Shown here: one piece after another, positions 2,346 to 18,902 of the stretch
Layout: the number at the start of each line of letters is the position of its first letter
How positions within the stretch are numbered: position 1 is the stretch's first letter
Source: a virus
Lineage: Duplodnaviria > Heunggongvirae > Uroviricota > Caudoviricetes
Reading direction: 5' to 3' (one strand)
Length of the DNA stretch: 28,665 nucleotides
IMG/VR virus record: IMGVR_UViG_2740892282_000008
Translations under genes and position numbers: made by a program
Notes under the pieces: generated by a model
Told to the model about the DNA's origin: nothing
Seen by the model: the letters and a program-made list of their open reading frames with translations, nothing else
Database searches by the model: none

Positions 2346-2789
2346 TCAACTAATCGCCTCAGCACTGGCTTTTGCGATCACGGCAGCCGGGGAATTTTTT
2401 TTTCTGGTTAGTCGGTACGCCTCTGTCGGCTTTTTACCCTGAGCAACAAGCATCGCAAACTTAGCCTGCTGGTCAGAAATGCCGAATTCATCGGGACAGA
2501 ACGAAAATTCCTCCGCGTCGCCCTCATTCAGGCCCGCATCGAATACTGGCTTTTTTTCCTGAGATTTTTCGTTCCGCTTTTGTGCAGTCTGCGCAGATTT
2601 TTTCTGCGCACTTTTTTGTGCAGTTTTGCACATTTCTGTCTGCGCATTTTTCGGAGTTTTTTTGATGTAACGACGGGCTGTTGCGTAATTCAGTCCCCTT
2701 GCTTCACACCATGCCACCGGAGATATACCGGAGCGGGTGTATTCAGCAATATACTCCTGCTGCAACGCCCCCCAGTCCGGTCTGCTCAT
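2346..2789 (-). CDS. Hypothetical HTH-containing protein (147 aa), possibly terminase small subunit-like
   Basis: N-terminal helix-turn-helix-like segment (ISPVAWCEARGLNYATARRYI); central low-complexity AQK repeat encoded by repeated TGCGCA/TGTGCAG DNA motifs; sits where terS is expected downstream of the lysis genes. Confidence 0.45.
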   Translation of the reverse strand: MSRPDWGALQQEYIAEYTRSGISPVAWCEARGLNYATARRYIKKTPKNAQTEMCKTAQKSAQKKSAQTAQKRNEKSQEKKPVFDAGLNEGDAEEFSFCPDEFGISDQQAKFAMLVAQGKKPTEAYRLTRKKNSPAAVIAKASAEAIS

Positions 2790-2792
2790 CAG

Positions 2793-3044
2793 TTAGTCCT
2801 GATTTTTATCCACCCTGAGTAGTTCGCGCAGAGCAAAGGCATCCCCTTTTCTGGCAAGCTTAAACAATGCCGCTCGTAACTCGGCTTCACCTTTCGCTCT
2901 GCCCTTACGGATGGCCGCATAAAAATCTGTCATTGCTTCCCGATTTTCTTTCAGTCGGTTCAGATCAACATCCAGAACGTCAGCGATTTGTTGTGCAGTC
3001 ATCCGGCACGCTGCCAGAGACTCGACTTTCGAATACGGAATCAT
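2793..3044 (-). CDS. Hypothetical small HTH-like protein (83 aa)
   Basis: ATG with strong RBS (GGGGGTGA); overlaps the 3' end of the upstream gene in another frame. Confidence 0.5.
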   Translation of the reverse strand: MIPYSKVESLAACRMTAQQIADVLDVDLNRLKENREAMTDFYAAIRKGRAKGEAELRAALFKLARKGDAFALRELLRVDKNQD

Positions 3045-3933
3045 TTGTCACCCCCATTGATATGCAGGGTGTCTTCTTCCTGTATTTTTCGTGAAGGATT
3101 TTTACTGCAGCGTTGTTCCAGGTGACCTGATGGTGAATGCGTTTATGGCTGGCACCCATCAGTGAGATTTTTACGCACGACGGCGCATACATGACGGAGT
3201 AAAAACTTTTAACGTAGGTTCCGGAATCCAGATACAGCTCGGTCATTCCGCCGCTGTTTTTCTGCGTCTGTTTCTGCCCTAACTGGACAGCACCGATCGT
3301 CATAAACAATTCACCACAGCGACCGAGATTCGTGTACGTATTCACATCCTCGTTAATGCGCCCCATGAATGAGAACGGTCGATCAACCGAACAGATAAAG
3401 CTGTTCATTGCCTTGCGTTTCACCCACGAAGCATGGCCGCCATTGTCACCAAGAAAATCCCCGCCCTGCGACATAGCGATGGAAAGAGCAGGTATTGATT
3501 CGTAGTACGCCAGCATTTCAGAAAGGATCGCATCCAGTTTCCTTATCGGAAAATAGGCCTGGTCATAGTTGCGATCCACCCGAAACTGGAACTCGTGATA
3601 ATCATCATCGAGCTGAATGAAGTATTTACACCCGACCAGTTTTGCCAGGTCGAAACAGGCATTACGGGCGTAAAAAATTGAGCGGCGGTCACAGAAATTA
3701 TCGGCTTCGTCAAAACGACTGGCGATATCGGCTTTGGAAAACACCAGCACCTGTTCACCAAATTCAGCCATGTACTGATTCCGTGTCTTATCTTCATCAT
3801 CAACAACGATAAAAATTTTCCCGGTATAGCCAGCACGACGCAACGTCCGGTAAGTCAGAACTTTGTCCGGTCGCCCGTGAGTCAGAATAAAGGCGCAAAA
3901 ATCATCACGCATATTCCTCCTCCTCACCACCAT
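2980..3933 (-). CDS. Uncharacterised protein, partner of the ParB-like gene (310-317 aa)
   Basis: Long ORF translationally coupled to the upstream ParB-like gene. The likely true start is the ATG at 3912, preceded by AGGAGGAGG. Contains a possible PD...(D/E)xK-like motif (GRPD ... IFIVVDDEDK); no methyltransferase DPPY/NPPY motif and no PP-loop. Confidence 0.7.
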   Translation of the reverse strand: MVVRRRNMRDDFCAFILTHGRPDKVLTYRTLRRAGYTGKIFIVVDDEDKTRNQYMAEFGEQVLVFSKADIASRFDEADNFCDRRSIFYARNACFDLAKLVGCKYFIQLDDDYHEFQFRVDRNYDQAYFPIRKLDAILSEMLAYYESIPALSIAMSQGGDFLGDNGGHASWVKRKAMNSFICSVDRPFSFMGRINEDVNTYTNLGRCGELFMTIGAVQLGQKQTQKNSGGMTELYLDSGTYVKSFYSVMYAPSCVKISLMGASHKRIHHQVTWNNAAVKILHEKYRKKTPCISMGVTNDSVFESRVSGSVPDDCTTNR

Positions 3934-4696
3934 GCATGATCTCCACCATGCGCTGCGTCATCCGGACAAATCCATTTTCAATAGCCTGCTGATAATCAAT
4001 GATCACCAGCGCCGACTCCTCGAAAAAACACTGAATTTCAGAGGGGGCGTGAGCGTAATAGTCCGCAATTCTGCTGAAATTAAACACCGTGTGACGTTCT
4101 GCCGCACACAGGAGGAATTTCTCAATATCAGGCTCAAGGGACGCCGAACGTATCCGGCTGATCAGCTCCTGAGTTTTCGTATCGTCGTACAGTTCACTGA
4201 TATCCGGTTTACCGCCCGACGGCTCATAAACAGGCGTATCAATTTTCGTCGTATACGGCTCCTCCTCATTTCCTGTACCGGGCAAAACATCCGTCAACAG
4301 TTCATCAATTTCTGTCGGGATGAAGCCTGTCAGGGAGACATCAAAATCAGCATTGATTAGGTCCGACAGCTCCATCCGCAACAGATCTTCATCCCAGCCA
4401 GCATTCATCGGCAGGCGATTATCTGCCAGGCGGTACGCCTTTTTCTGCTCATCCGTCAGGCCAGACAGAACAATGACCGGAACAGAATCCATTTTGAGCA
4501 TTTCAGCCGCCATAACACGACCGTGACCCGCAATAATTTCGCCCTTTTCGTCAATCAGCACCGGATTAGTCCAGCCGAATTGCTTAATACTTTCTACCAG
4601 TTGTGCCACCTGCTCAGGGCTGTGCGTCCTGGCGTTGTGCGCATACGGTGACAATTCTTGTAATGGGCGATAGACTATCTTTAATTTCTCGCTCAT
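3905..4696 (-). CDS. ParB-like nuclease domain (ParB/Srx fold) protein, 263 aa
   Basis: N-terminal ParB-box-like motifs (VYRPLQELSPYAHNARTH ... IIAGHGRVMAA); 3' end overlaps the start of the next gene. Confidence 0.8.
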   Translation of the reverse strand: MSEKLKIVYRPLQELSPYAHNARTHSPEQVAQLVESIKQFGWTNPVLIDEKGEIIAGHGRVMAAEMLKMDSVPVIVLSGLTDEQKKAYRLADNRLPMNAGWDEDLLRMELSDLINADFDVSLTGFIPTEIDELLTDVLPGTGNEEEPYTTKIDTPVYEPSGGKPDISELYDDTKTQELISRIRSASLEPDIEKFLLCAAERHTVFNFSRIADYYAHAPSEIQCFFEESALVIIDYQQAIENGFVRMTQRMVEIMHGGEEEEYA

Positions 4697-4833
4697 ACAG
4701 CCTTGCTTTATGAATAAAACGCACCCCAGCAGCCAGTGCTACTGGGGACGGAGGGGTTGCTGGTAAAGTTAGGTATTGGATCAATGAGTGAGTCAACATA
4801 ATATTAAACTCACAATTATAAATCAGCCATATA

Positions 4834-6291
4834 TTAGGAGCGCCAAAAAAAACCTGAAAACAATATAATAACAGGATAAATTTCAAGGCGACCAAGAATC
4901 ATAGCTATGCACATTAAACATTTTGCAATGTCATTAAGCACTCCGAATGACGATGCAGTAGCCCCAAAACCTAATCCCATATTATTAATACATGCAGCCA
5001 CTGTTGCAAATGATGTAAGAAAATCATATCCCATACCATTTAACACCAGTATAAAAAACACCGTGAAGAGAGTATAAAGAAAAAAGAAACTCCATACAGA
5101 CCTCATTACACGATCTGTAACTATCTTCCCTCCTACATTTACACTCAACAACGCTCTGGGATGAGAAAGCTGATTTATCTCGTGTTTGCTTTGTTTGAAA
5201 AGTATAAGAAATCGAAGTGACTTAATTCCACCACAAGTTGAACCTATACATCCCCCAAAGAAACTTGACAACAGCAAAAACACTATCGTGTGCGTGGGCC
5301 AACTTGCATAATCCTGCGTAGCTAAACCATTATCAGTGAGCATGGAGCTGGCAAGAAAAAACGAATGAATAAAACTTCCATGCAAGTCATACATACCTAT
5401 ATGCCAGACCTGGAAAGAGGTAACAATGATCACCCCTAAGGCTATTAACAGAAAGAAACGAAGTTCAATATCTCTGATTAAAGGTTTTATCGTTTTCCTG
5501 CTAATAACAATATACCAAAGAGTGAAGTTGAAAGCCGATAGCAGGGAAAAAGAACCAGCCACCAGCTCAACCAAATAGTTATTAAAATATCCGATACTCT
5601 CGCTATGAGTTGAGAAACCACCAAGCGAAACTGTGGAAATCCCGTGACAAATAGCATCAAACAAAGGCATTCCTGCAAGTCTATAACAGACAATACAAGC
5701 AATACCTAATAAAGAATAAGTTATCCACAGTGTCCGTGACGTATCGGCCAGGCGGGGAGTGAGTTTGTCATCCTTAAATGGCCCCGGCATTTCTGACTGA
5801 TAAAGCTTTGCACCACCAATACCCAATAATGGCAATACAGCAACCGCCAGAACAATAACTCCTAAACCACCTATAAAATTTAACTGTGACCGATAGTACA
5901 AATATGCCCGAGGTAATGAACTAACATCATCAATTACAGTTGCTCCTGTTGTTGTTATTCCAGAAACCCCTTCAAACAGAGCATCAATGAACGTTAAATT
6001 AAGTTCTGAGTCAATCCATAAAGGGAATGCACTAATAACAGAAAACAAAATCCAAAACATTACAATTATAATAAACCCATCACGGGTACGTAATTGAATG
6101 CCAGATTTCTTAGTTGTATACCACGCTCCGCCACCAATGCAAAAAAATATAACGAAAGTTATAAAGAAAACGAACAGGCTTTTTTCTTTATAAAACAATG
6201 CTACAACCATTGGTGGCAACATTGAAAGACTATAGAGCCAAACCAGGAACCCACACATATGAGTAACAACTCTTACATGAGATGTATTCAT
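4834..6291 (-). CDS. trkG: Trk-system potassium uptake protein TrkG (485 aa)
   Basis: Polytopic membrane protein whose sequence from MNTSHVRVVTHMCGFLVWLYSLS matches my recollection of Rac TrkG; conspicuously AT-rich relative to its neighbours. Confidence 0.9.
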   Translation of the reverse strand: MNTSHVRVVTHMCGFLVWLYSLSMLPPMVVALFYKEKSLFVFFITFVIFFCIGGGAWYTTKKSGIQLRTRDGFIIIVMFWILFSVISAFPLWIDSELNLTFIDALFEGVSGITTTGATVIDDVSSLPRAYLYYRSQLNFIGGLGVIVLAVAVLPLLGIGGAKLYQSEMPGPFKDDKLTPRLADTSRTLWITYSLLGIACIVCYRLAGMPLFDAICHGISTVSLGGFSTHSESIGYFNNYLVELVAGSFSLLSAFNFTLWYIVISRKTIKPLIRDIELRFFLLIALGVIIVTSFQVWHIGMYDLHGSFIHSFFLASSMLTDNGLATQDYASWPTHTIVFLLLSSFFGGCIGSTCGGIKSLRFLILFKQSKHEINQLSHPRALLSVNVGGKIVTDRVMRSVWSFFFLYTLFTVFFILVLNGMGYDFLTSFATVAACINNMGLGFGATASSFGVLNDIAKCLMCIAMILGRLEIYPVIILFSGFFWRS

Positions 6292-6428
6292 ATCTAAATA
6301 TTCTTTCAATTATAACCACCTTGCTGCAATATTATGATTATACTGTATAAAATTTAACTCCTCTTAGATCTTACTTCACTGTTCCTTATGAAACAATCAT
6401 CAAAATGAATCATATTGTAGTTAAGATT

Positions 6429-6893
6429 TTACTTTAAACACTGCTCGGTTATGTATTGCTGAGCACCTTCAAGTTGGGCCTGCATCATTACCAGTCGTTC
6501 CCGGAGGGTGAAATAATCCCGTTCAGCGGTGTCTGCCAGTCGGGGGGAGGCTGCATTATCCACGCCGGAGGCGGTGGTGGCTTCACGCACTGACTGACAG
6601 ACTGCTTTGATGTGCAACCGACGACGACCAGCGGCAACATCATCACGCAGAACATCATTTTCAGCTTTCGCATCAGCTAACTCCTTCGTGTATTTTGCAT
6701 CGAGCGCAGCAACATCACGCTGACGCATCTGCATGTCAGTAATTGCCGCGTTCGCCAGCTTCAGTTCTCTGGCATTTTTGTCGCGCTGTTCTTTGTAGGC
6801 GATGGCGTTATCACGGTAATGATTAACACCCCATGACAGGCAGACGACGATGCAGATAACCAGAGCGGAGATAATCGCGGTTACTCTGTTCAT
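6429..6893 (-). CDS. Rz: Spanin inner-membrane subunit Rz (i-spanin)
   Basis: N-terminal transmembrane segment plus coiled-coil periplasmic domain; ATG overlaps the R stop (ATGA); contains the embedded Rz1 frame. Confidence 0.85.
6488..6673 (-). CDS. Rz1: Spanin outer-membrane lipoprotein Rz1 (o-spanin), embedded in the +1 frame of Rz
   Basis: 61-aa ORF with lipoprotein signal and lipobox (LPLVVVGC), proline-rich mature part ([15 protein letters not shown]), strong AAGGAG RBS, entirely inside Rz. Confidence 0.8.
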
Positions 6894-7387
6894 TGCTGAC
6901 CCCACAAACAGATTTCACGCTCAATCTCACGACGAGTCATGAGACCTTTCCATTGCTTACCGCCAGCATATGTCCAGCGACGTAGCTGATCACATGCGCC
7001 TTTGATATCGCCCTGGTTTATTTTGCGAAGAAGCGTCGATGTTCTGAAATTGCCAGCACCCACGTTGTAAACGAATGAGTAAAGAGCGCCGCGCGTTGTT
7101 TCCGGTATATCGACTTTGATGTACGGGTTAATTTGTCTGGCGACCGTGGCAAGGTCTTTATTCAGGAGGGCTTTGCATTCTGCTTTGGTATACGTTTTAC
7201 CGAGCATGATGTCTTTTCCTGTATGCCCGTGACATACAGTCCATACACCAACAATATCTTTGTATGGTATGTAGCTGACACCTTCCAGACCATCGTTACC
7301 ACTTGGGCCAGTGATTAACACTGATGCTATAGCAATTGCTCCGCCACCAATAGCAGCAGCAACGACTTTTCGTAATGATGGAGGCAT
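6890..7387 (-). CDS. R: SAR endolysin (phage-21-type lysozyme R)
   Basis: 165 aa; N-terminal signal-anchor-release segment ([20 protein letters not shown]) followed by a lysozyme domain; close match to my recollection of phage 21 R; strong RBS. Confidence 0.9.
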
Positions 7388-7602
7388 TATTCACCTCTCG
7401 CAGCCTTGCGCTTATCTTCTTTAATCTTGAAATAAAGGTTTGTCAGGTACGTCAGCAGGCCAAATACCAGACTACCCAGCACACCGATTGCAGCCCACTG
7501 TGACGGAGTTACTCTATCGAGCAACTGTAAAAACCAGTAGCCAGCACTGCCTGCGGAGGTGCCGTAGGCAATGCCTGTTGAAATTTTGTCCATGGATTTC
7601 AT
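7387..7602 (-). CDS. S: Class II holin / pinholin (S21-like) with dual-start motif
   Basis: 71 aa starting [26 protein letters not shown]; two transmembrane segments; dual start Met1/Met4 (holin/antiholin); strong GGAGGTGA RBS; stop overlaps the R start. Confidence 0.85.
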
Positions 7603-7710
7603 AGCCTCACCTCCGTACGGAACGGATGGCATAGTTATTATGTGTAGGCTTTCAGACACATCAATCAGAGCCTTAATTGATATATATGCTGGAGACGATG
7701 CAATATAAAA

Positions 7711-7853: not shown

Positions 7854-8249
7854 CTAACCTCGCATGTCAAAGCCAGATTTCTGAAAATCTCTGTAGACTT
7901 CCGGATTGTTGAAGGCCGGAAATTTGGCTTTATGAGCTGCGGACTTTATCGCTTCGCAATAGGCTTTATCACCGTTACTGGTAGATATTTTTAACGCCGT
8001 GCCATCCTGAGAGAATTCCATATGCAACCTGCATTTTTTCCCTTTCCAGTTATGCGGCTCATCAAGTTTGGCATTAATTGCAGCTCTGATTCCCCGCGCT
8101 TGCGCCCCCCATTCATCCTGATCATCCCAGCGTCCTGAACTGCAACTACCTGTAGCAGTAGTTTTGTGGCAATCTGAAGGGTGTAAAGGTGTGCATCCCG
8201 CAACAAAACCGACCCAAAAAGTCAACATAACGATTTTCTTTAATCCCAC
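7854..8249 (-). CDS. Lipoprotein with TolA domain-III-like C-terminal domain (paralogue B, 131 aa)
   Basis: GTG start with GAGGAG RBS; signal peptide plus lipobox (FVAGC); C-terminal ~80 aa share the K-C-L-M...G-L...C-EA...PA...EVY-F pattern with the neighbouring paralogue and with the TolA C-terminus. Confidence 0.7.
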   Translation of the reverse strand: MGLKKIVMLTFWVGFVAGCTPLHPSDCHKTTATGSCSSGRWDDQDEWGAQARGIRAAINAKLDEPHNWKGKKCRLHMEFSQDGTALKISTSNGDKAYCEAIKSAAHKAKFPAFNNPEVYRDFQKSGFDMRG

Positions 8250-8399: not shown

Positions 8400-8828
8400 T
8401 CAGGGTTTAAAATCCAGCACCCCATTTTGAAATACTTTATATACTTCCGGCGAAGGGGGGGCAGGTATATCAGCATTCTTTATCGCATTCATCGCTTCAC
8501 GACATAAATCGAGGTCTCCACTTTCTCTTTTAACCTCCAGTAGAAGGCCATTCGGGGCCATATGCATTCTCAGTGTACACTCTTTTCCTGAATACTTACT
8601 CGCATCCCCGAACTGTTTTTCGATGGCGCTCTTGATTTGATGGGCATACAGACGGATATCCTCACTAACATCAGAAGTACGTTCAGATGAACTCACATAC
8701 TGTGTCTCTATTGCTTTATTGGAGTAATATGATGTACGGTCATGATAATTTGTCGATACAGCATCAGTGCACCCGATAATAATCCCACTAATAATCAACG
8801 TAAGAATTGATGCGCTACGAAAACCCAT
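8400..8828 (-). CDS. Lipoprotein with TolA domain-III-like C-terminal domain (paralogue A, 142 aa)
   Basis: Signal peptide plus lipobox (IIIGC); C-terminus YAHQIKSAIEKQFGDASKYSGKECTLRMHMAPNGLLLEVKRESGDLDLCREAMNAIKNADIPAPPSPEVYKVFQNGVLDFKP is strongly similar, from memory, to the C-terminal domain of E. coli TolA. Confidence 0.8.
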   Translation of the reverse strand: MGFRSASILTLIISGIIIGCTDAVSTNYHDRTSYYSNKAIETQYVSSSERTSDVSEDIRLYAHQIKSAIEKQFGDASKYSGKECTLRMHMAPNGLLLEVKRESGDLDLCREAMNAIKNADIPAPPSPEVYKVFQNGVLDFKP

Positions 8829-12645: not shown

Positions 12646-13845
12646 ATGCCATTTGTTATTTATGTGTTTACTATCAGTGCCTTTGCGCTCGGACTCGCGG
12701 AATTTGTCCCCATTGGGCTGACAGACGTTATGGCTCAGGGGTTGTGTGTGGGTGTGGAGCAGACCGGGGCAGCGGTTACAACCTATGCACTGGGGGCAAC
12801 GTTCGCGGCACCCGTACTGTCTGCGCTGACAGCAAGCTGGAGCCGGAAAAATGTAATGCTTACAACTGCCGTTGTGTTTACTGCCGGTAGTCTGGCGGCC
12901 GCGTTTGCAGCCACATTACCTCAGCTCCTGTTAGCGCGGTTCATTGCTGGTCTGGGACACGGCCTGTTTCTGGCTGCGGCATCCAGTACCGCAGCTCGTC
13001 TTGCTGGACCGGGTAAAGCAGGCAGAGCGGTGGCTGTGGTATTTGGTGGCTTTACTCTGGCGATGGCAATCGGCGTACCGCTGAGTACATGGTTGGGGGG
13101 GGGGGTCTCATGGCGTCCAGTTCTCGGCGCTATTGCCGCTTTTGGCGCGTTCGGATTCCTTGGACTGTTGTTCGGTATGAAAGATCCCGTACGCAGCGTG
13201 CCCGGTGAACATAGTGACTCAGCAATGCAGAATATCGGCATGCTGTTTAACCGTAAGTTGCTGGCCGGCGCGCTGGTTACGGTGCTGGCGTATGCAGGCT
13301 CGTTTACGGATTACACCTTTATCGCACCTATTCTGACGCAGGTGACAGGGGTTACCGGAGCAACGGTGAGTCTGTTTATGCTGGTTTACGGTATTACAGC
13401 TGCGGTAGGTAATATTCTTGGTGGGAAACTTACCGACAGCATGGGGGTTAATCGTGCCAATATACTCATCATTAGCGGCATTGTTGTTGTCGTGCTTGGT
13501 ATGTGGCTGCTGTCATCCTCACCGGTGAGCATGGGCATTCTGGTTGCGCTGCTGGGTATGGTGACATTTGCCGCAGTGCCGGCACTGCAGGCCCGTCTGA
13601 TTGGTGTCGCTGAGCAACATGCTCCTCATGCGCATGGTGTTGCTGCCGGCCTGAATATTGCGGGCTTCAACTCAGGTATAGCGCTGGGATCAGTACTGGG
13701 CAGCATTACTATAAGCCACGCCGGTATCGTGTATACCGGTATCAGCGGTGCGATTGTTTCTCTGCTCGGCCTGCTGTTGCTGCTTGCACAAATCCGTCGC
13801 AGCCACAGTCGTAAATTTCAACAGGTTAAAATCGTAGGCCAGTAA
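12646..13845 (+). CDS. MFS transporter (399 aa)
   Basis: About 12 predicted transmembrane helices, Gly/Ala-rich major-facilitator-like sequence; AGGAG RBS; GC-rich relative to phage DNA; contains an 11-G tract. Confidence 0.85.
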   Translation: MPFVIYVFTISAFALGLAEFVPIGLTDVMAQGLCVGVEQTGAAVTTYALGATFAAPVLSALTASWSRKNVMLTTAVVFTAGSLAAAFAATLPQLLLARFIAGLGHGLFLAAASSTAARLAGPGKAGRAVAVVFGGFTLAMAIGVPLSTWLGGGVSWRPVLGAIAAFGAFGFLGLLFGMKDPVRSVPGEHSDSAMQNIGMLFNRKLLAGALVTVLAYAGSFTDYTFIAPILTQVTGVTGATVSLFMLVYGITAAVGNILGGKLTDSMGVNRANILIISGIVVVVLGMWLLSSSPVSMGILVALLGMVTFAAVPALQARLIGVAEQHAPHAHGVAAGLNIAGFNSGIALGSVLGSITISHAGIVYTGISGAIVSLLGLLLLLAQIRRSHSRKFQQVKIVGQ

Positions 13846-13856
13846 AGGGAGGTTAT

Positions 13857-14549
13857 ATGCTTACCCGTGAAAATATGCTTAATGGCACATTTGTCAGGGT
13901 GCATGAAGCGCTGCTCCCGGCGAATATGCTCTGGGACGCTGAAAAAATACGCGCATCAATGAACTCTACTCTGGAGGAGCGCCCGACGGGTGCTCCTGTC
14001 TGGATATTTGCCTACGGGTCATTGATGTGGAATCCCGTGCTGGCGATTGAAGAAATGCAACGGGCCCGTCTGAAAGGATGGCAGCGCAGTTTCTGCATTC
14101 GTTTGATATCCGGACGAGCGACTCCTGATGTCCCCGGCAGGATGTTATCGCTCGACGAAGGTGGAATTACCGAAGGTATTGCGTTCAGACTGCCGGAATC
14201 GACTCTTATTAATGAGCTGGAAATTGTCTGGACGCGCGAGATGATAACCGGTCTTTACCGTCCGGTCTGGGCAGACGTTTCGCTAGGAAACGGTGAGGAA
14301 ATTCAGGCGCTGGCTTTCGTATCAGACAGACTGCATCCGCATTATGAACAGGACAATCTTACAGCGACCGTAGCGTTGAGCATCGCATCTGCCCGTGGAG
14401 ACATTGGCACGAATGCAGATTATGTATGGAAACTGCAGGCCACTCTGGGTGCGTTGGGAATACGGGATGATTACGTGAGTGAACTGGCCCTTGCTCTGCA
14501 TGAGGCTCCCTGTAACGATAAACTTCATCAGCGAGGCGCTTCACTATGA
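13857..14549 (+). CDS. ChaC-family gamma-glutamylcyclotransferase-like protein (230 aa)
   Basis: VWIFAYGSLMWNP and GRMLSLDEGG motifs resemble E. coli ChaC; GGGAGG RBS. Confidence 0.75.
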   Translation: MLTRENMLNGTFVRVHEALLPANMLWDAEKIRASMNSTLEERPTGAPVWIFAYGSLMWNPVLAIEEMQRARLKGWQRSFCIRLISGRATPDVPGRMLSLDEGGITEGIAFRLPESTLINELEIVWTREMITGLYRPVWADVSLGNGEEIQALAFVSDRLHPHYEQDNLTATVALSIASARGDIGTNADYVWKLQATLGALGIRDDYVSELALALHEAPCNDKLHQRGASL

Positions 14550-15427
14550 GCCATCTGAGCCATCTGCGAACGTTTCTTGAGGCCTATCGCTCTGGCTCCT
14601 TTTCAAAGGCGGCAGAACTACTGGGCATCACTCAGCCCGCGGCGTCACAGCATATCCAGTCTCTTGAGACTCTGGTTGGTAAGCGTCTGTTTATCAGGCA
14701 GGCCAGAGGCGTGACGGCAACCGAAGCTGCGGATGAGCTTGCCCGCTCAGTTTCACCCTTCATTGATGGTCTGGAAGAAAAGCTGTCCTCTTTCCGGTCA
14801 GGCTCTGTACGCGGGGGAACAATTAATCTGGCAGGACCGCCAGATTTTATTCATTCCCGGCTTGGGACAGTAATGGCTCCACTAATGAAGGAGGGGTATC
14901 GCCTACGCTTTCATACCGGCAATAAGCAACGTATTTATTCCCTTTTGCATGACGGGAGCGCCGATCTCGCTGTTACCGCATCTATGCCTGATGACCGTCT
15001 GTACGGCTATGCACATCTACTGACTGAACGCATGCTCCTTGTTCATGCTCCCGCCATGTCAGAGATCATCGGATCAGAACCTGGTGCTGAAACGCTTGCC
15101 TCATTACCGCTGATTGCTTATGACGAAGAGTTGCCACTGATTAGAGCGCTCTGGGCCTCCATGTTTCAGAGAGCCCCTGAGATGCAGGCTACATTCACCA
15201 TTCCGGATTTACGTATTATCCGCGACTTGGTCTGTGACGGCCACGGGTGGACAGTGCTGCCGGATTATCACTGTGACAATGACCTGAAAAGTGGTCGCCT
15301 GATTTCAGTGACACCTGCAGACCTCGCTCCGACTAATCATCTTTATCTGGTCTGGAACAAAAGGACGGCTAATAACAGCCGAACCGCCTATGTTCGGGAT
15401 TACATTCTTAAAACGTTTCCGCGTTGA
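14546..15427 (+). CDS. LysR-type transcriptional regulator (293 aa)
   Basis: N-terminal LysR HTH (LRTFLEAYRSGSFSKAAELLGITQPAASQHIQSLE) and C-terminal substrate-binding-like domain; ATGA overlap with the ChaC-like gene. Confidence 0.85.
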   Translation: MSHLSHLRTFLEAYRSGSFSKAAELLGITQPAASQHIQSLETLVGKRLFIRQARGVTATEAADELARSVSPFIDGLEEKLSSFRSGSVRGGTINLAGPPDFIHSRLGTVMAPLMKEGYRLRFHTGNKQRIYSLLHDGSADLAVTASMPDDRLYGYAHLLTERMLLVHAPAMSEIIGSEPGAETLASLPLIAYDEELPLIRALWASMFQRAPEMQATFTIPDLRIIRDLVCDGHGWTVLPDYHCDNDLKSGRLISVTPADLAPTNHLYLVWNKRTANNSRTAYVRDYILKTFPR

Positions 15428-15471
15428 TGTTTGAAACGGATGATTGGCGATGCGTATCATAAGTTACGTAT

Positions 15472-15495
15472 GTCCGCTTCTGGCACAAAGCAGAC
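15472..15495. repeat. Dyad element copy A: GTCCGCT-tctggcacaa-AGCAGAC
   Basis: 7-bp arms (one mismatch) with 10-bp spacer, between convergent LysR and membrane-protein genes; 20 of 24 positions identical to copy B. Confidence 0.6.
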
Positions 15496-15557
15496 GCCCA
15501 CTCTCACGCGAATGCTTTGCCCTTGACTTGCCAACAACCGTATCGCTTGCTCCGCAA

Positions 15558-16835
15558 CTATGGTTTTTTATTAGAATCTTCGCCACTAAATAAATTATAA
15601 TAAATTGATTTTATTAGATATCTGTCAGAATCTATATGGTCAGCACGAGTAGCATGCTCTAATGTTTCAAATGCTAGGGTTTGTGCGGCTTCAGCAAAAA
15701 TTCCAGGCCAACCCTTACTCAGCATCGACAGTCCTTTAAGTACCCTTATCTGAATTTCCCTCATACTGGCACCATCGCGCGCAACAGGTGAGAAAAAGTC
15801 TTCAAGTAGATCGTTATTCTGAAGTGGTGCAACATGTACAGAAGGATATTTCACTTCTATTTCATCAGATTTATTCTGCGCGTAAGCGGAAAGTATACGT
15901 ACACCTCTGCCAATGACATCAATGGCGGTTCCAGGATCGTTCACTGCGGGGGAAAGGGCTCGGCAGGCTATTTCGGCCATGACGCTAAGACAAAATCGGG
16001 GGTCCTGAGCAAATGAACGTACATCCGAGACAATAATCGTCTCAAGTAAATCGGTGCTGATTGATGACTCCTGGCCCTGACTCAGGTACAAAACTGGCGT
16101 GGACGGATGTATGAAACTGCCCGGCTGCGCCACGAGGTATACATGACGGGGATCATTGGTCAGCAGCTTGCTGAGTTTCACCATATCAACATATTCAACA
16201 TAGCCAATCTTTTTCGGATAAACTGCAACCGTTCCTTTCGGCTGTTCATTGTTCTCAAGCCATGGATATCCGCCGAGACAGGGATTTCTTGCTCTCGCAA
16301 TAAATGTTTCGATGGCCGCCTGTTCTACTTTTGCCGTTGTCTCACCAACCCTCCCCAGAGAGGTCAAATGCTGTATCCAGCGAAGCAATGTGATGAGGAT
16401 TAAGGCAATGACAACCAGTGTTACAATGAATAAAATGACTCTCCCCCTTTCTCCATAAGCTCCCATATTGAGGGCAATAATCCCTACCAGACTGAAGAGA
16501 AAAGAACCGATGAAGGTGGCCAGTACATTTTGTGTGGTGACGTCTTCAACAACTAAACGAGTAGCTCTGGGAGTCACATTAGTAGTGGCTGAACCGTAGG
16601 CTGTGACCATGATGCTCAGCGAAAATGTGGTCACTGCCAGCATACTCGATGCCAGTATGTTCAGAATGTTATCGACTGCTTCCGCACCAACCTTCACGGA
16701 AACCGACTCAGGTATCATTGATTTAAAAAGAATTGATAAAAGGGCCGTTATTATTGCGACAATTGCGAATAACGTTGCCCTGAACCATAGTTTTTTAAAT
16801 GTCTGCTTCAGCATCCATTTCCAGCGTGAAATCAT
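15558..16835 (-). CDS. Membrane protein of unknown function (about 425 aa; resembles DUF2254-type predicted membrane proteins)
   Basis: Several N-terminal transmembrane helices and a large soluble C-terminal domain; start chosen at the second ATG (16835), which has a GAGGGA RBS; the maximal ORF extends to 16850. Family assignment is from memory and tentative. Confidence 0.55.
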   Translation of the reverse strand: MISRWKWMLKQTFKKLWFRATLFAIVAIITALLSILFKSMIPESVSVKVGAEAVDNILNILASSMLAVTTFSLSIMVTAYGSATTNVTPRATRLVVEDVTTQNVLATFIGSFLFSLVGIIALNMGAYGERGRVILFIVTLVVIALILITLLRWIQHLTSLGRVGETTAKVEQAAIETFIARARNPCLGGYPWLENNEQPKGTVAVYPKKIGYVEYVDMVKLSKLLTNDPRHVYLVAQPGSFIHPSTPVLYLSQGQESSISTDLLETIIVSDVRSFAQDPRFCLSVMAEIACRALSPAVNDPGTAIDVIGRGVRILSAYAQNKSDEIEVKYPSVHVAPLQNNDLLEDFFSPVARDGASMREIQIRVLKGLSMLSKGWPGIFAEAAQTLAFETLEHATRADHIDSDRYLIKSIYYNLFSGEDSNKKP

Positions 16836-16870
16836 TCTGCATTCCCTCATATTGCAGCCGGGATAAATAA

Positions 16871-16891
16871 ATGCCGCCTCTGTGGCGGCAT
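16871..16891 (-). terminator. Hairpin between the BCCT transporter and the membrane-protein gene; possible intrinsic terminator or attenuator
   Basis: 8-bp stem atgccgcc/ggcggcat with loop tctgt; on the minus strand it is followed by ttatttatcc. Confidence 0.4.
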
Positions 16892-16898
16892 GTTGCTG

Positions 16899-18902
16899 TT
16901 AACGAACCAGATGCAGGAAGTGCAGGTGTTTTTCGTACTGGTCCAGTATGTCATTAATCAGCTGTTCCTGATTCCAGCCCATTACATCATAATTTTGGCC
17001 GCCCTCTTTGAGATAGACTTCAGCGCGATAATATCGATGTTGTTCACTCTGCTGCTCATCATTATCCAGCGCAGCGAGCGCGAAGGTCGGTGAGTTATAC
17101 CCGCGAAGCCTCACTTCATATATATAATTCAGCTCGTTGCCCAAATCGACTTCAAGGCGAATACGATCCTCGGCGGCGTCACTGATGTGGCTTATCGTTC
17201 CCTGCTTGTTAAGTTCCTCCTGAACCAGCGTCATGGCGGGTTGGATAATGTCGTCCATAAAACGTTTCACAAGAGAGCGCTTCGGCAAATACGCGATATT
17301 GCGTAACCTTCTCTGCCAGGGAATTGGGTTACGTGCAGCCGTAGGAGCAATAGTCGCCATGCTAAGGCTTTCACGCTTGGTCAAATCCCGACGCAGGGCT
17401 TTTAACAGTCCGTATATGGATATTAATAAGATAACTGAGAAGGGCAATGCACTCGCTATCGTTACGGTTTGCAACGCACTCAGCCCCCCTGCGATCAGCA
17501 GGGCAATAGCAACAACGCCCATGAGCGATGCCCAGAAAATTCGCTGCCAGACGGGCGTGTTTGCCACCCCACCTGATGCCAGAGTATCCACAACCATTGC
17601 CCCCGAATCAGCAGACGTTACAAAGAAGACGATGACCATCGCCATTGCAATGAATGACAGCACGGAAGAGAACGGGAAATGCTCCAGGAAATTAAACAGG
17701 GCAAGCGCAACATCCTGCTGAACGGTATTGGCGAGGTCAGTGGCGCCCTGGTTCATGATGAGATAGATGGCGCTGTTTCCAAACACCGTCATCCACATGA
17801 GCGTAAAGCCGGCGGGAACAAACAACACGCCAGTCACGAACTCACGAATTGTCCTGCCGCGGGAAACGCGTGCAATGAACATACCTACAAACGGCGACCA
17901 TGAAAGCCACCATCCCCAGTATAATAATGTCCAGCCCCCCAGCCAGTTGCTCGACTTGGGTTCATACGCGTAAAGGTTGAACGTTTTACTCACCAGTTCC
18001 GACAGATAACCACCCGTATTTTCCACAAATGACTTCAGCAGAAGCACAGTGGGACCCAGGCACAAGACCAGCGCCAGGAGCAACACCGCCAGGCCCAGAT
18101 TAAGCTCAGACAGGATGCGTATTCCCTTGTCCAGGCCGGACACCACCGAAATCGTCGCTAACCCCGTGATGACCACGATCAAAATGACCTGTACCGTTTC
18201 ATTGATGGGCACGCCGAAAAGATGGTTCAAACCGGCATTCACCTGCAATACACCGTAACCCAGCGATGTTGCAACGCCAAAGACAGTGCCTATCACGGCG
18301 AAGATATCAACCGCGTGGCCTATAGGCCCGTAAATGCGATCGCCGATAATGGGATAGAGCGCAGAACGCAGCGTTAAAGGCAGACCGTGACGGTAACTGA
18401 AAAAGGCCAGAATCAGCGCCACGATGGCATAAATTGCCCATGCGTGCAGACCCCAGTGGAAGAACGTCAGGCGCATGGCTTCCTTCGCTGCCGCAACGGT
18501 CTCTGGAGTGCCGACAGGTGGCGAAAGATAATGCATCACAGGTTCGGCAACGCCAAAGAACATCAGGCCGATCCCCATCCCTGCCGAAAAAAGCATCGCG
18601 AACCAGGAGTGGTAGCTGAAATCAGGCTGCGCATGGTCTGGGCCCAGCTTTATATCACCGTAACGTGAGAGTCCAAGGAACGTGACGCTCAGTAAAATCA
18701 GGGCCACAGCAAGTATGTAGAACCAGCTGGCATTCGTGAAGATTTGTTGCTGAAGTAGTTTAAAATTTTTGTCGGCGACATCCGGGAATACGGCGGCAAA
18801 GGCGACAAGAAGGAAAATTAGCAAAGCAGATGTAAAGAATACCGCTTTGTTAATCTGGCTTGTAGACTTCTTTGGGGTTGTATCATTTTCACTCATAATC
18901 AT
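16899..18902 (-). CDS. BCCT-family transporter, BetT-like (667 aa)
   Basis: Collinear similarity to my recollection of E. coli BetT, including LSELN, WTLLYWGWWLSWSPFVGMFIARVSRGRTIREF and the cytoplasmic C-terminal extension ending DILDQYEKHLHFLHL. Confidence 0.9.
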   Translation of the reverse strand: MIMSENDTTPKKSTSQINKAVFFTSALLIFLLVAFAAVFPDVADKNFKLLQQQIFTNASWFYILAVALILLSVTFLGLSRYGDIKLGPDHAQPDFSYHSWFAMLFSAGMGIGLMFFGVAEPVMHYLSPPVGTPETVAAAKEAMRLTFFHWGLHAWAIYAIVALILAFFSYRHGLPLTLRSALYPIIGDRIYGPIGHAVDIFAVIGTVFGVATSLGYGVLQVNAGLNHLFGVPINETVQVILIVVITGLATISVVSGLDKGIRILSELNLGLAVLLLALVLCLGPTVLLLKSFVENTGGYLSELVSKTFNLYAYEPKSSNWLGGWTLLYWGWWLSWSPFVGMFIARVSRGRTIREFVTGVLFVPAGFTLMWMTVFGNSAIYLIMNQGATDLANTVQQDVALALFNFLEHFPFSSVLSFIAMAMVIVFFVTSADSGAMVVDTLASGGVANTPVWQRIFWASLMGVVAIALLIAGGLSALQTVTIASALPFSVILLISIYGLLKALRRDLTKRESLSMATIAPTAARNPIPWQRRLRNIAYLPKRSLVKRFMDDIIQPAMTLVQEELNKQGTISHISDAAEDRIRLEVDLGNELNYIYEVRLRGYNSPTFALAALDNDEQQSEQHRYYRAEVYLKEGGQNYDVMGWNQEQLINDILDQYEKHLHFLHLVR

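Follow-up and report, generated by a model that had tools for sequence, protein, structure and literature searches.

Two overlapping genes of the window (the whole stretch of DNA that was analysed, 28,665 nucleotides) encode a ParB-like protein and a TAGT-family glycosyltransferase, and we hold with moderate confidence that the pair is a two-subunit, ParB-assisted DNA glycosyltransferase working before packaging. The transferase would be a metal-dependent, nucleotide-sugar-using GT-A enzyme, and its obligate partner would combine an NTP-binding domain (NBD) of a type otherwise fused to phage DNA methyltransferases with a disordered linker and a helical C-terminal domain (CTD). In the proposed mechanism, both proteins would be made together from the late operon by way of coupled translation; the CTD and the linker motif YTxKIxxPxYEP would bind and activate the transferase; the ParB domain would load or hold the complex on double-stranded DNA, as in the case of the ParB-like activators of phage thymine dioxygenases; and progeny DNA would be glycosylated shortly before packaging, which would protect it from restriction in the next host. 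We infer that DNA is the acceptor of the sugar, that the ParB-like protein is the activator of the transferase, and that the module serves anti-restriction. A DNA-targeting role had been suggested from the sequence alone, with modification, anti-defence and an abortive-infection nuclease as its possible forms; modification or anti-restriction is the best-supported of these readings, and the abortive-infection nuclease is unsupported. The features of the locus are as follows.

2346..2789, minus strand: terminase small subunit (TerS), shortened to 147 aa (phrog_51, E 8e-40)
2793..3044, minus strand: small conserved ORF before the terminase small subunit (phrog_309, E 8e-23; synteny in L009 and SE11)
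2980..3912, minus strand: TAGT-family GT-A glycosyltransferase, 310 aa, full-length form of Rac YdaY (Pfam PF20691, phrog_842, AF2, Foldseek)
2980..3043, minus strand: non-homologous C-terminal tail of the transferase, about 21 aa, overlapping the next ORF (DNA alignment with a Klebsiella homologue)
3601..3609, minus strand: DxD motif D102-D103-D104 (QLDDDY; GATGATGAT), predicted to bind metal and nucleotide sugar, invariant in alignments A1, A3 and A7
3905..4696, minus strand: ParB/Srx-fold protein, 263 aa, full-length form of Rac YnaK
3905..3925, minus strand: coupling junction, with the Shine-Dalgarno-like GAGGAGGAGG, ATG 3912-3910 and the ParB stop TGA 3907-3905 (direct reading of the sequence)
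3908..4204, minus strand: family-specific helical CTD, aa ~165-263 (alignments A2, A4 and A6)
4217..4261, minus strand: conserved linear motif YTxKIxxPxYEP, aa 146-160, in a linker predicted to be disordered (30 sequences; pLDDT)
4397..4696, minus strand: NTP-binding ParB domain (NBD), aa 1 to ~100, with N21, S36, G41, GHGR (57-60) and D92-N93 (alignment A2)

The sequence-only reading had described two overlapping, translationally coupled ORFs placed between lysis and packaging genes, without naming a strand, and all of this was borne out; both ORFs are real and both lie on the minus strand. The order of genes is holin (7387-7659), lysozyme (6890-7387), Rz (6429-6905), a trkG moron (4834-6309), the pair itself, and then terminase-small-subunit remnants (2793-3044 and 2346-2789). 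The ATG of the transferase at 3912, from which the ORF runs down to 2980, stands directly behind GAGGAGGAGG, and the minus-strand junction reads ...GGT GAG GAG GAG GAA T-ATG-CG-TGA; the ATG therefore lies 8 nt inside the ParB reading frame, which is the length of the overlap. Among relatives the ParB/TAGT overlap ranged from 4 to about 41 nt, as counted on the longest ORFs. Homologues of the transferase all start at MRDDFC in the alignment, and the RefSeq annotation is likewise the 310-aa form. Mechanically, a start at ATG 3933 would also work and would give 317 aa.

The window is a defective Rac-type prophage, integrated and with an integrase, from which the head genes and most tail genes are missing. 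The shortened TerS shows where the module ends on the packaging side and where the head genes were deleted; in intact relatives TerS has 350-364 aa and is followed by TerL and the portal gene. The small ORF before it has 83 aa here, 69 aa in RefSeq and 85 aa in Klebsiella. At its own C-terminus the transferase departs from the Klebsiella homologue by a 1-nt frame difference and reads through an ancestral ATGA stop-start, and typical TAGT homologues, at 283-290 aa, cover only about 90% of the 310-aa query. The locus is that of the Rac prophage of E. coli K-12, with the same flanking trkG, but the ynaK-ydaY pair of K-12 consists of shortened remnants (b1365, 87 aa, and b1366, 119 aa), whereas the window holds the intact form, identical to ECSE_RS29555 plus RS07435 of E. 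coli SE11. Nothing functional was found in the literature on ynaK/ydaY or on the halovirus HHTV-2, and the annotation of ynaK and ydaY is here corrected to a ParB-like protein and a TAGT-family glycosyltransferase. With the head and most tail genes missing and a terminator-like hairpin between trkG and the pair, expression in the host is doubtful; the module in the window is probably a silent yet intact passenger, the prophage being defective. At least 80% of the 2.2-kb region was present in 867 of the 5426 complete E. coli genomes. Intact copies in hundreds of sequenced strains, together with a K-12 background that has remnants only and is thus a natural null, make for a very tractable test system.

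The transferase had been called uncharacterised, yet its family is known: it clearly belongs to Pfam PF20691 (TAGT; E 8.4e-35, 121 bits with the cut-off at 27.5, profile positions 4-205 of 205), its sole Pfam match, and to phrog_842 (E 1.2e-103). This is consistent with the earlier observation that it has neither a DPPY/NPPY methylase motif nor a PP-loop; assignment to an IbrA/IbrB or ParB-methylase type was considered and rejected, as TAGT was the only domain and neither a PAPS-reductase/PP-loop nor an N6/N4 methyltransferase domain was present. In the AF2 model the GT-A core was confident over residues 1-215 and the C-terminal 90 residues were of low confidence, and Foldseek matched the model to GT-A enzymes at E of about 1e-4 with probability 1.0, among them SpsA, glycogenin, ColGalT1 and ThuS. 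R14, D102-D104 and D189 were invariant in all three TAGT alignments (A1, A3 and A7), and E188 in A3 and A7 only. The predicted catalytic signature is the DxD motif plus E188-D189; the corresponding R...DDD...ED motifs, known from phage GT-A DNA glycosyltransferases and JGT, are invariant in the present subfamily. Both R14, in GRPD, and the acidic strand DDEDK belong to the N-terminal part of the GT-A fold, which binds the nucleotide sugar. A sequence search of the PDB with the TAGT profile returned no solved relative, and neither NCBIfam nor the PADLOC defence-system models matched the transferase.

The ParB/Srx domain recognised from the sequence at the N-terminus of the 263-aa protein was confirmed, its model having a pLDDT of about 90 and its profile matching Noc, Spo0J and ParB in the PDB. 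The nearest NBD profiles were those of ParB domains from DNA-methyltransferase fusions (PADLOC MTase_II, 2e-38; phrog_498, 1e-50). In the AF2 model the NBD (1-100) is followed by helices (103-134), a disordered stretch (137-155, pLDDT below 50) and the helical CTD (165-240), and no HTH DNA-binding domain was seen. Within the linker motif, Y148, K151, P155, Y157 and P159 were invariant in 30 sequences. The CTD matched no Pfam family; its homologues fell into 1373 clusters at 50% identity and the domain was always C-terminal in the protein. It also exists as a stand-alone protein of about 133 aa, including beside TAGT in Vibrio phages, and no CTD-TAGT fusion occurred among the best 150 CTD representatives. 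Among 50,697 phage records the CTD matches were a subset of the TAGT matches; the two co-occurred in 71 of the 74 loci in which the CTD was found, and a stand-alone CTD was followed directly by TAGT in 80 of 80 viral contigs. The CTD, found solely next to this TAGT subfamily, is a partner domain dedicated to it, and usually forms one protein with a ParB fold of the DNA-modification type.

TAGT homologues numbered more than 8000, and in essentially all of the 92 loci scanned a ParB gene again preceded TAGT; the pairing is therefore not due to chance. A ParB gene with an overlapping TAGT gene, at most a few genes upstream of terminase, was present in Lactobacillus, Nocardia and Porphyromonas phages, in enterobacterial prophages, in soil contigs and in HHTV-2; the conserved module is carried by phages whose hosts come from four bacterial phyla, and by one halovirus. 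Cultured phages in which it is intact include L. delbrueckii phage c5, L. gasseri phi jlb1, Nocardia NTR1 and HHTV-2, and LL-Ku, Ld17 and phiLdb are natural knock-outs. The pair is under purifying selection: dN was 0.12-0.32 in TAGT and 0.23-0.48 in ParB, and as synonymous sites were saturated, no dN/dS ratio is given for most pairs.

The TAGT family has been described as DNA-acting (PMC13216743, PMC13390438, bioRxiv 10.1101/2023.12.21.572611), and its characterised members add sugars to hydroxymethyl-pyrimidines or to sugars already on DNA. A TET/JBP dioxygenase or a thymidylate-synthase-type hydroxymethylase was searched for in the window, two complete phage genomes and about 170 related loci. 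Neither was found among the window ORFs of at least 90 aa, in the non-structural ORFs of the complete cultured phages c5 and phi jlb1, or in the neighbourhoods L009, L011, L093 and L095, and no recognisable candidate for a 5hmC- or 5hmU-forming enzyme was seen in the neighbour clusters of 80 contigs, which were inspected mostly by eye with ten representatives scanned. Two neighbours of 248-249 aa in L093 and L095 were considered as dioxygenases and rejected; one is a DUF1376-like replication protein, and the other has a class-I-methyltransferase-like motif by eye and no Pfam match. As a hydroxymethyl-pyrimidine-forming enzyme was not found, the sole known acceptors of the TAGT family are missing. 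It is possible, though on balance unlikely, that the ParB-CTD/TAGT pair puts the sugar straight onto ordinary, non-hydroxymethylated DNA (a canonical base or a DNA end) and needs no dioxygenase or hydroxymethylase, in which case the ParB-like subunit might open or clamp the duplex for the transferase. If true, this would be a previously unknown DNA modification in many temperate phages, among them common prophages of E. coli, Salmonella and Klebsiella as well as a haloarchaeal virus.

Known systems resemble the pair in part. The phage GT-A DNA glycosyltransferases of 5mYOX/TET pathways and the trypanosome JGT (bioRxiv 10.1101/2023.12.21.572611; Burke 2021, PMC8256090) share with the transferase the GT-A fold and the R...DDD...ED(Y/F) motifs, the likeness to JGT being taken from literature descriptions; the phage enzymes, moreover, often have ParB-like and terminase genes near them. 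They differ in that the hydroxyl acceptor is made for them by neighbouring enzymes, either a TET-like dioxygenase together with a C5-methyltransferase or a hydroxymethylase of the thymidylate-synthase type, and in that those papers describe no dedicated partner domain, whereas the pair has the CTD. The beta-glucosyl-HMC alpha-glucosyltransferase of T2/T6 (ggt), the namesake of phrog_842, belongs to the same Pfam family and transfers glucose from UDP-glucose to a DNA-linked acceptor, the glucosyl-5hmC made by gene 42 plus alpha-GT. T6 ggt is nevertheless very distant in sequence; its alignment to the subfamily profile by hhalign was not significant, with the ED motif alone shared, although Pfam still places both in PF20691. 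The T2/T6 enzyme also has neither the ~55 conserved C-terminal residues seen in the present subfamily nor any CTD or ParB partner, its neighbours being uvsX and gene 42. The transferase has a match above the Pfam gathering threshold and a GT-A fold with the family motifs, and no hydroxymethyl-pyrimidine-forming enzyme was found near it.

On the side of the ParB-like protein, the ParB176-type activators of phage thymine dioxygenases (O'Toole 2026, PMC13229309), likened here by their published description, have the same plan of NBD, short helical segment, disordered linker and CTD with no HTH, lie in a phage late-region context, and serve a partner enzyme that modifies DNA after replication; such activators are needed on dsDNA (PMC13229309). 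The AF2 model of the protein has this NBD-linker-CTD plan without a DNA-binding domain, but the gene adjacent to it in the window encodes TAGT and not a 5mYOX dioxygenase, and ParB176-type pathways go on with kinases, amidotransferases and amino-acid transferases. The ParB domain-DNA methyltransferase fusions of prophages (phrog_498; PADLOC MTase_II; Kaljevic 2025, PMC12704722) are the nearest NBD relatives and occupy the same slot upstream of terminase; their catalytic part is a fused N6/N4 methyltransferase, whereas the window has a separate, coupled glycosyltransferase and a novel CTD.

The alternative that survives best, itself improbable, is that the transferase acts on an acceptor other than DNA, either an envelope polymer or a protein (its partner, at the conserved Tyr/Thr-containing YEP motif, a protein of packaging or of the virion, or one of the host), with the ParB-like protein as scaffold or substrate. 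No hydroxyl-bearing DNA base could be made by the phages examined; GREB1, a eukaryotic TAGT-domain protein, O-GlcNAcylates a protein; and among solved structures the best neighbours include glycogenin, which glucosylates itself, the peptide S-glycosyltransferase ThuS and a collagen galactosyltransferase. The nearest solved folds work on teichoic acids, proteins or glycans, TarP having been reported for related phage GT-A enzymes, and the invariant Tyr-rich motif lies within a disordered linker. Against this, the N-terminal domain of the partner is the DNA-modification type of ParB fold and the late-operon slot of the module is also that of ParB-methyltransferase genes; the module is found in viruses of Gram-negative, Gram-positive, actinobacterial, Bacteroidota and archaeal hosts, which have no envelope polymer in common; and conservation of the YEP motif does not extend to its Thr/Ser, which is Lys in several sequences.

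Less probable again, in our estimate, is that the transferase is a conventional hydroxymethyl-pyrimidine glycosyltransferase whose dioxygenase or hydroxymethylase was lost or is encoded elsewhere, leaving an enzyme that is inert alone and a relic in a decaying prophage. Every phage TAGT/GT-A enzyme that has been characterised biochemically acts on 5hmC or 5hmU, or on a sugar that one of these already carries; Pfam can miss divergent 5mYOX enzymes; the window prophage is defective; the K-12 copies are pseudogene-like; and the TAGT gene is broken in several L. delbrueckii phages. However, the dioxygenase-free two-gene form was the rule in every genome and metagenome neighbourhood examined, with saturated dS and low dN; c5 and phi jlb1 are complete cultured phages and offered no candidate enzyme; and ParB-dependent dioxygenase pathways have been reported with other downstream enzymes and not with glycosyltransferases.

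The two last alternatives are both very remote. The sequence-only reading had seen a PD-(D/E)xK-like arrangement in the partner (GRPD ... IVVDDEDK), by which the pair would be an abortive-infection or DNA-cleaving defence or anti-defence system, and 'nuclease' is often used to annotate ParB-fold proteins; the structure prediction that it had asked for gave a GT-A fold, both Pfam and PHROG assign a glycosyltransferase, the 50 Foldseek matches listed, each with an E at or near 1e-3, included no nuclease fold, and R14 alone among the proposed residues is invariant. A true partition or centromere-binding function for the ParB-like protein, in a prophage that is plasmid-like and with its neighbour as unrelated cargo, would fit the ParB_N domain, the weak similarity to TIGR00180 and Noc and some deposited records ('chromosome (plasmid) partitioning protein'), but beyond the N-terminal CTPase-fold domain it has no HTH, no ParA among the scanned window ORFs and no equivalog-level similarity (TIGR00180, 38.5 bits against an NCBIfam cut-off of 58.45; Noc, 30 against 315), the prophage is integrated, and the coupling of the gene to TAGT is invariable.

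Glycosylation of phage DNA is known only from systems that first make a hydroxymethyl-pyrimidine, and in a published survey about two thirds of the glycosyltransferase contigs from phages were set aside for lacking an enzyme that does so, a DNA-modifying role being judged 'less likely' for contigs without such neighbours. Among these orphan glycosyltransferases, a large subset that is ancient and maintained by selection has a fixed structure, with a dedicated partner domain and a place at the head of the packaging operon; this points to a DNA-directed activity, and a new partner domain is thereby defined for the TAGT family. In favour of the DNA-glycosyltransferase reading, some relatives have accessory sugar-pathway genes within the module or next to it: in one contig a histidine-phosphatase plus cytidylyltransferase gene was inserted between ParB and TAGT, in another TAGT was fused to a SAM methyltransferase, and a minority of contigs carried downstream of the module a hexapeptide acetyltransferase or glycosyltransferase-like genes, the latter with weak or absent Pfam support.

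The partner gene begins inside the end of the ParB-like gene, and the two open reading frames are arranged as follows:

4696 to 3905, minus strand: ParB-like gene, 263 aa; barely over threshold for Pfam ParB_N, very strong match to phrog_620
3912 (ATG) to 2980, minus strand: partner gene, 310 aa

The ATG at 3912 lies immediately 3' of GAGGAGGAGG, 8 nt within the upstream gene. The same start is annotated by RefSeq in identical copies from other E. coli strains, and all partner homologues in the alignment share the N-terminus MRDDFC; together with the reading of both frames, this confirmed the coupled, overlapping genes described by the sequence-only reading. In the E. coli protein the last ~21 residues (2980-3043) are a non-homologous read-through tail outside the conserved region, caused by a 1-nt frame difference immediately before the ancestral ATGA stop-start, and this tail overlaps the next ORF by 65 nt. 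The pair is under selection, both genes exhibiting low dN and saturated dS between enterobacterial relatives.

The partner, which had been taken as uncharacterised, belongs to a known family; it matches Pfam PF20691 (TET-associated glycosyltransferase, TAGT; E 8.4e-35) and phrog_842 (E 1.2e-103). The T2/T6 beta-glucosyl-HMC alpha-glucosyltransferase has been placed in the same Pfam family (PMC13216743, PMC13390438), and T6 ggt scored in it as well in our own Pfam scan. When proteins from E. coli, Klebsiella, a soil contig, phages of Lactobacillus, Nocardia, Porphyromonas and Vibrio, and halovirus HHTV-2 were aligned, the invariant residues included R14, D68, R83, D102-D103-D104, K167, D189 (INEDVN) and H260-H261. 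They correspond to the R...DDD...ED motifs that have been described (bioRxiv 10.1101/2023.12.21.572611) both for the base-J glucosyltransferase and for the GT-A enzymes with which phages glycosylate DNA. AlphaFold modelled the GT-A core of the partner with confidence, and its solved structural neighbours are SpsA, glycogenin, WrtF, ColGalT1 and ThuS. A nuclease, the mechanistic guess drawn from a possible PD-(D/E)xK site at 'GRPD ... IVVDDEDK', is highly improbable: given the family and GT-A core, those residues belong to the half of a glycosyltransferase that binds the nucleotide sugar and do not form such a site, and no nuclease was present among the structural matches listed.

For the ParB-like protein, structure prediction upheld the ParB/Srx N-terminal domain, in agreement with the ParB_N and phrog_620 matches, and the model was divided into four parts:

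residues 1 to ~100: ParB/Srx NTP-binding domain, confident
residues 103-134: two short helices
residues 137-155: disordered stretch
residues ~165-240: helical C-terminal domain (CTD)

The ParB CTP-binding residues are conserved in the alignment (N21, S36, G41, GHGR and D92-N93), and by profile the N-terminal domain came closest to ParB domains that form fusions with DNA methyltransferases of phages (phrog_498, 1e-50; PADLOC MTase_II, 2e-38). A partition ParB was rejected as extremely unlikely, as NCBIfam scores fell far under the cut-offs, the model lacks an HTH domain, and no ParA was found among the window ORFs scanned. Phage thymine dioxygenases have ParB-like activators, needed specifically when the substrate is double-stranded DNA, and the architecture described for those activators (PMC13229309) matches the one modelled here.

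Conservation is strong across the C-terminal half of the ParB-like protein, which comprises a linker motif (YTxKIxxPxYEP) and a helical domain with AAxRH, IADYYAH and ALVIID; a Pfam scan found no family for it. Vibrio phages of 191 kb have, upstream of TAGT, a gene for this part alone (139 aa, profile positions 133-254), and a database search with the CTD returned mostly stand-alone proteins of 130-140 aa. The TAGT gene lay directly 3' of the stand-alone CTD gene, usually with an 11-nt overlap, in 80 of 80 viral contigs found via such proteins. Essentially all loci found via TAGT had the ParB-like gene immediately upstream, and TAGT was adjacent in 71 of the 74 loci found via the E. coli-type CTD. 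Two of the three exceptions were deletions; in the third (L163, 2942-3895) the ParB-like gene and TAGT are separated by an inserted gene for a histidine-phosphatase and cytidylyltransferase-like fusion, which suggests that a dedicated nucleotide-activated donor is produced within the module. Among 50,697 phage records, every one with the CTD also had this TAGT subfamily. An exhaustive profile search yielded 1373 CTD clusters at 50% identity, and in the best 150 of these the CTD invariably formed the very end of the protein, either on its own or preceded by a ParB domain. The distant TAGT T6 ggt had no CTD neighbour.

All characterised members of this enzyme class require a hydroxyl on DNA, which according to the literature is supplied either by a TET/JBP-type dioxygenase (5mYOX) with 5mC or T as substrate or by a hydroxymethylase of the thymidylate-synthase type (ThyS). 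Neither was found in the window, in the neighbourhoods of one Klebsiella prophage and one soil phage, among the non-structural ORFs of phages c5 and phi jlb1, whose genomes are complete, in the HHTV-2 annotation, in the examined contexts of stand-alone-CTD/TAGT pairs, or among gene clusters that were enriched near 80 of these pairs (most were judged by eye and ten were scanned). A C5 cytosine DNA methyltransferase is encoded two genes upstream of one stand-alone-CTD/TAGT pair (L093, 5868-6614), with no recognisable dioxygenase near them. Two alternatives were weighed: that the transferase acts on a non-DNA acceptor, which is rather unlikely, and that it is an orphaned conventional 5hm-pyrimidine glycosyltransferase, inert on its own, which we consider still less likely.

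With modest confidence, we favour a DNA glycosyltransferase that consists of two subunits and is encoded in the late operon. Coupled translation would yield both proteins in fixed proportion, the linker motif and CTD would bind and activate the GT-A enzyme, and the ParB domain would keep it on duplex DNA; progeny DNA would be glycosylated shortly ahead of packaging as an anti-restriction measure. The data above show family, fold, motifs, coupling, co-occurrence and selection; we infer the DNA acceptor, the activation by the ParB-like partner and the anti-restriction purpose. The pair, which looks like an ordinary ParB gene beside a hypothetical protein, proves to be a well-defined variant among phage DNA-glycosylation systems, with a predicted function, and interest centres on its missing acceptor and on the newly delimited TAGT partner domain.

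Extra genes that hint at more complex glycans lie 2 to 4 kb downstream of TAGT in a minority of stand-alone-CTD/TAGT loci (L170-L249); the first three kinds listed are sugar-related, and some loci also have one of the other two:

15 loci: possible GT-B, Pfam match below threshold
10 loci: hexapeptide acetyltransferase
9 loci: second GT-A-like ORF, by eye
5 loci: N6/N4 methyltransferase, by eye
4 loci: PP-loop-like protein, by eye

One high-GC viral contig (L088, 10001-11719) encodes a 572-aa fusion of TAGT with a class-I SAM methyltransferase domain, and the ParB-like gene is 3 kb upstream, not adjacent. In the literature, ParB-dependent dioxygenases associate with kinases, amidotransferases and amino-acid transferases, and glycosyltransferases with ParB-independent ones; published work left aside ~65% of glycosyltransferase contigs, which had neither 5mYOX nor ThyS as a neighbour. 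The ParB-CTD/TAGT module is therefore a distinct association. No description of it was found in the literature searched, which left out Iyer et al. 2013, where TAGT was reportedly defined.

The window is a defective E. coli prophage of the Rac type, with integrase, RecE, SieB, YdaS/T-like, Q-like antiterminator, holin, lysozyme and Rz genes and the moron trkG. The order is trkG, the pair, then a truncated TerS joined to tail-chaperone and tail-fibre-assembly genes:

4724-4747, minus strand: strong hairpin resembling a terminator (stem of 10 bp with 7 G-C pairs, and a T-rich tail), in the gap from the trkG stop codon to the start of the ParB-like gene
1836-2789: truncated TerS and tail-assembly-chaperone gene; TerS 147 aa versus 350-364 aa in intact relatives

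Downstream of the pair, SE11 and a Klebsiella prophage have a small ORF and then full-length TerS, TerL and portal genes; the TerS remnant in the window abuts the tail-assembly-chaperone gene, so a single deletion took out TerL, portal, head genes and most tail genes. The prophage is incapable of forming particles, and without Q antitermination the hairpin would insulate the pair from trkG transcription; the module is thus probably silent here, whatever its chemistry.

The 2.2-kb pair region had matches in 1619 of 5426 complete E. coli genomes, 867 of them covering at least 80% of it. At the same position in K-12 MG1655, the ParB-like and TAGT genes survive as the remnants ynaK (87 aa) and ydaY (119 aa). 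TAGT is split, truncated or a remnant in several Lactobacillus delbrueckii phages (LL-Ku, Ld17, phiLdb and Ld25A; H39-H51, matches in phage records), and intact in their close relative c5; the broken copies are natural knock-outs usable for comparison. Decay in these phages and K-12 fits a dispensable accessory function.

Elsewhere in the window, tandem small ORFs with TolA C-terminal domains (7854-8249 and 8400-8828; N-termini lipoprotein-like by eye) lie just upstream of holin on the late-gene strand, and are possibly morons interfering with Tol-dependent colicins or phages. A non-phage-looking block (12646-18902: MFS transporter, ChaC-like, LysR regulator, DUF2254 membrane protein, BCCT transporter) sits between late-regulator genes (Q-like, YbcO, DUF1367) and replication/immunity genes, and may be a cargo island or rearrangement. 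At the window start (1-393), a GGDEF-type diguanylate-cyclase gene fragment, assigned by eye, adjoins tail-fibre-assembly-like ORFs on the other strand, and this junction may be a prophage end.
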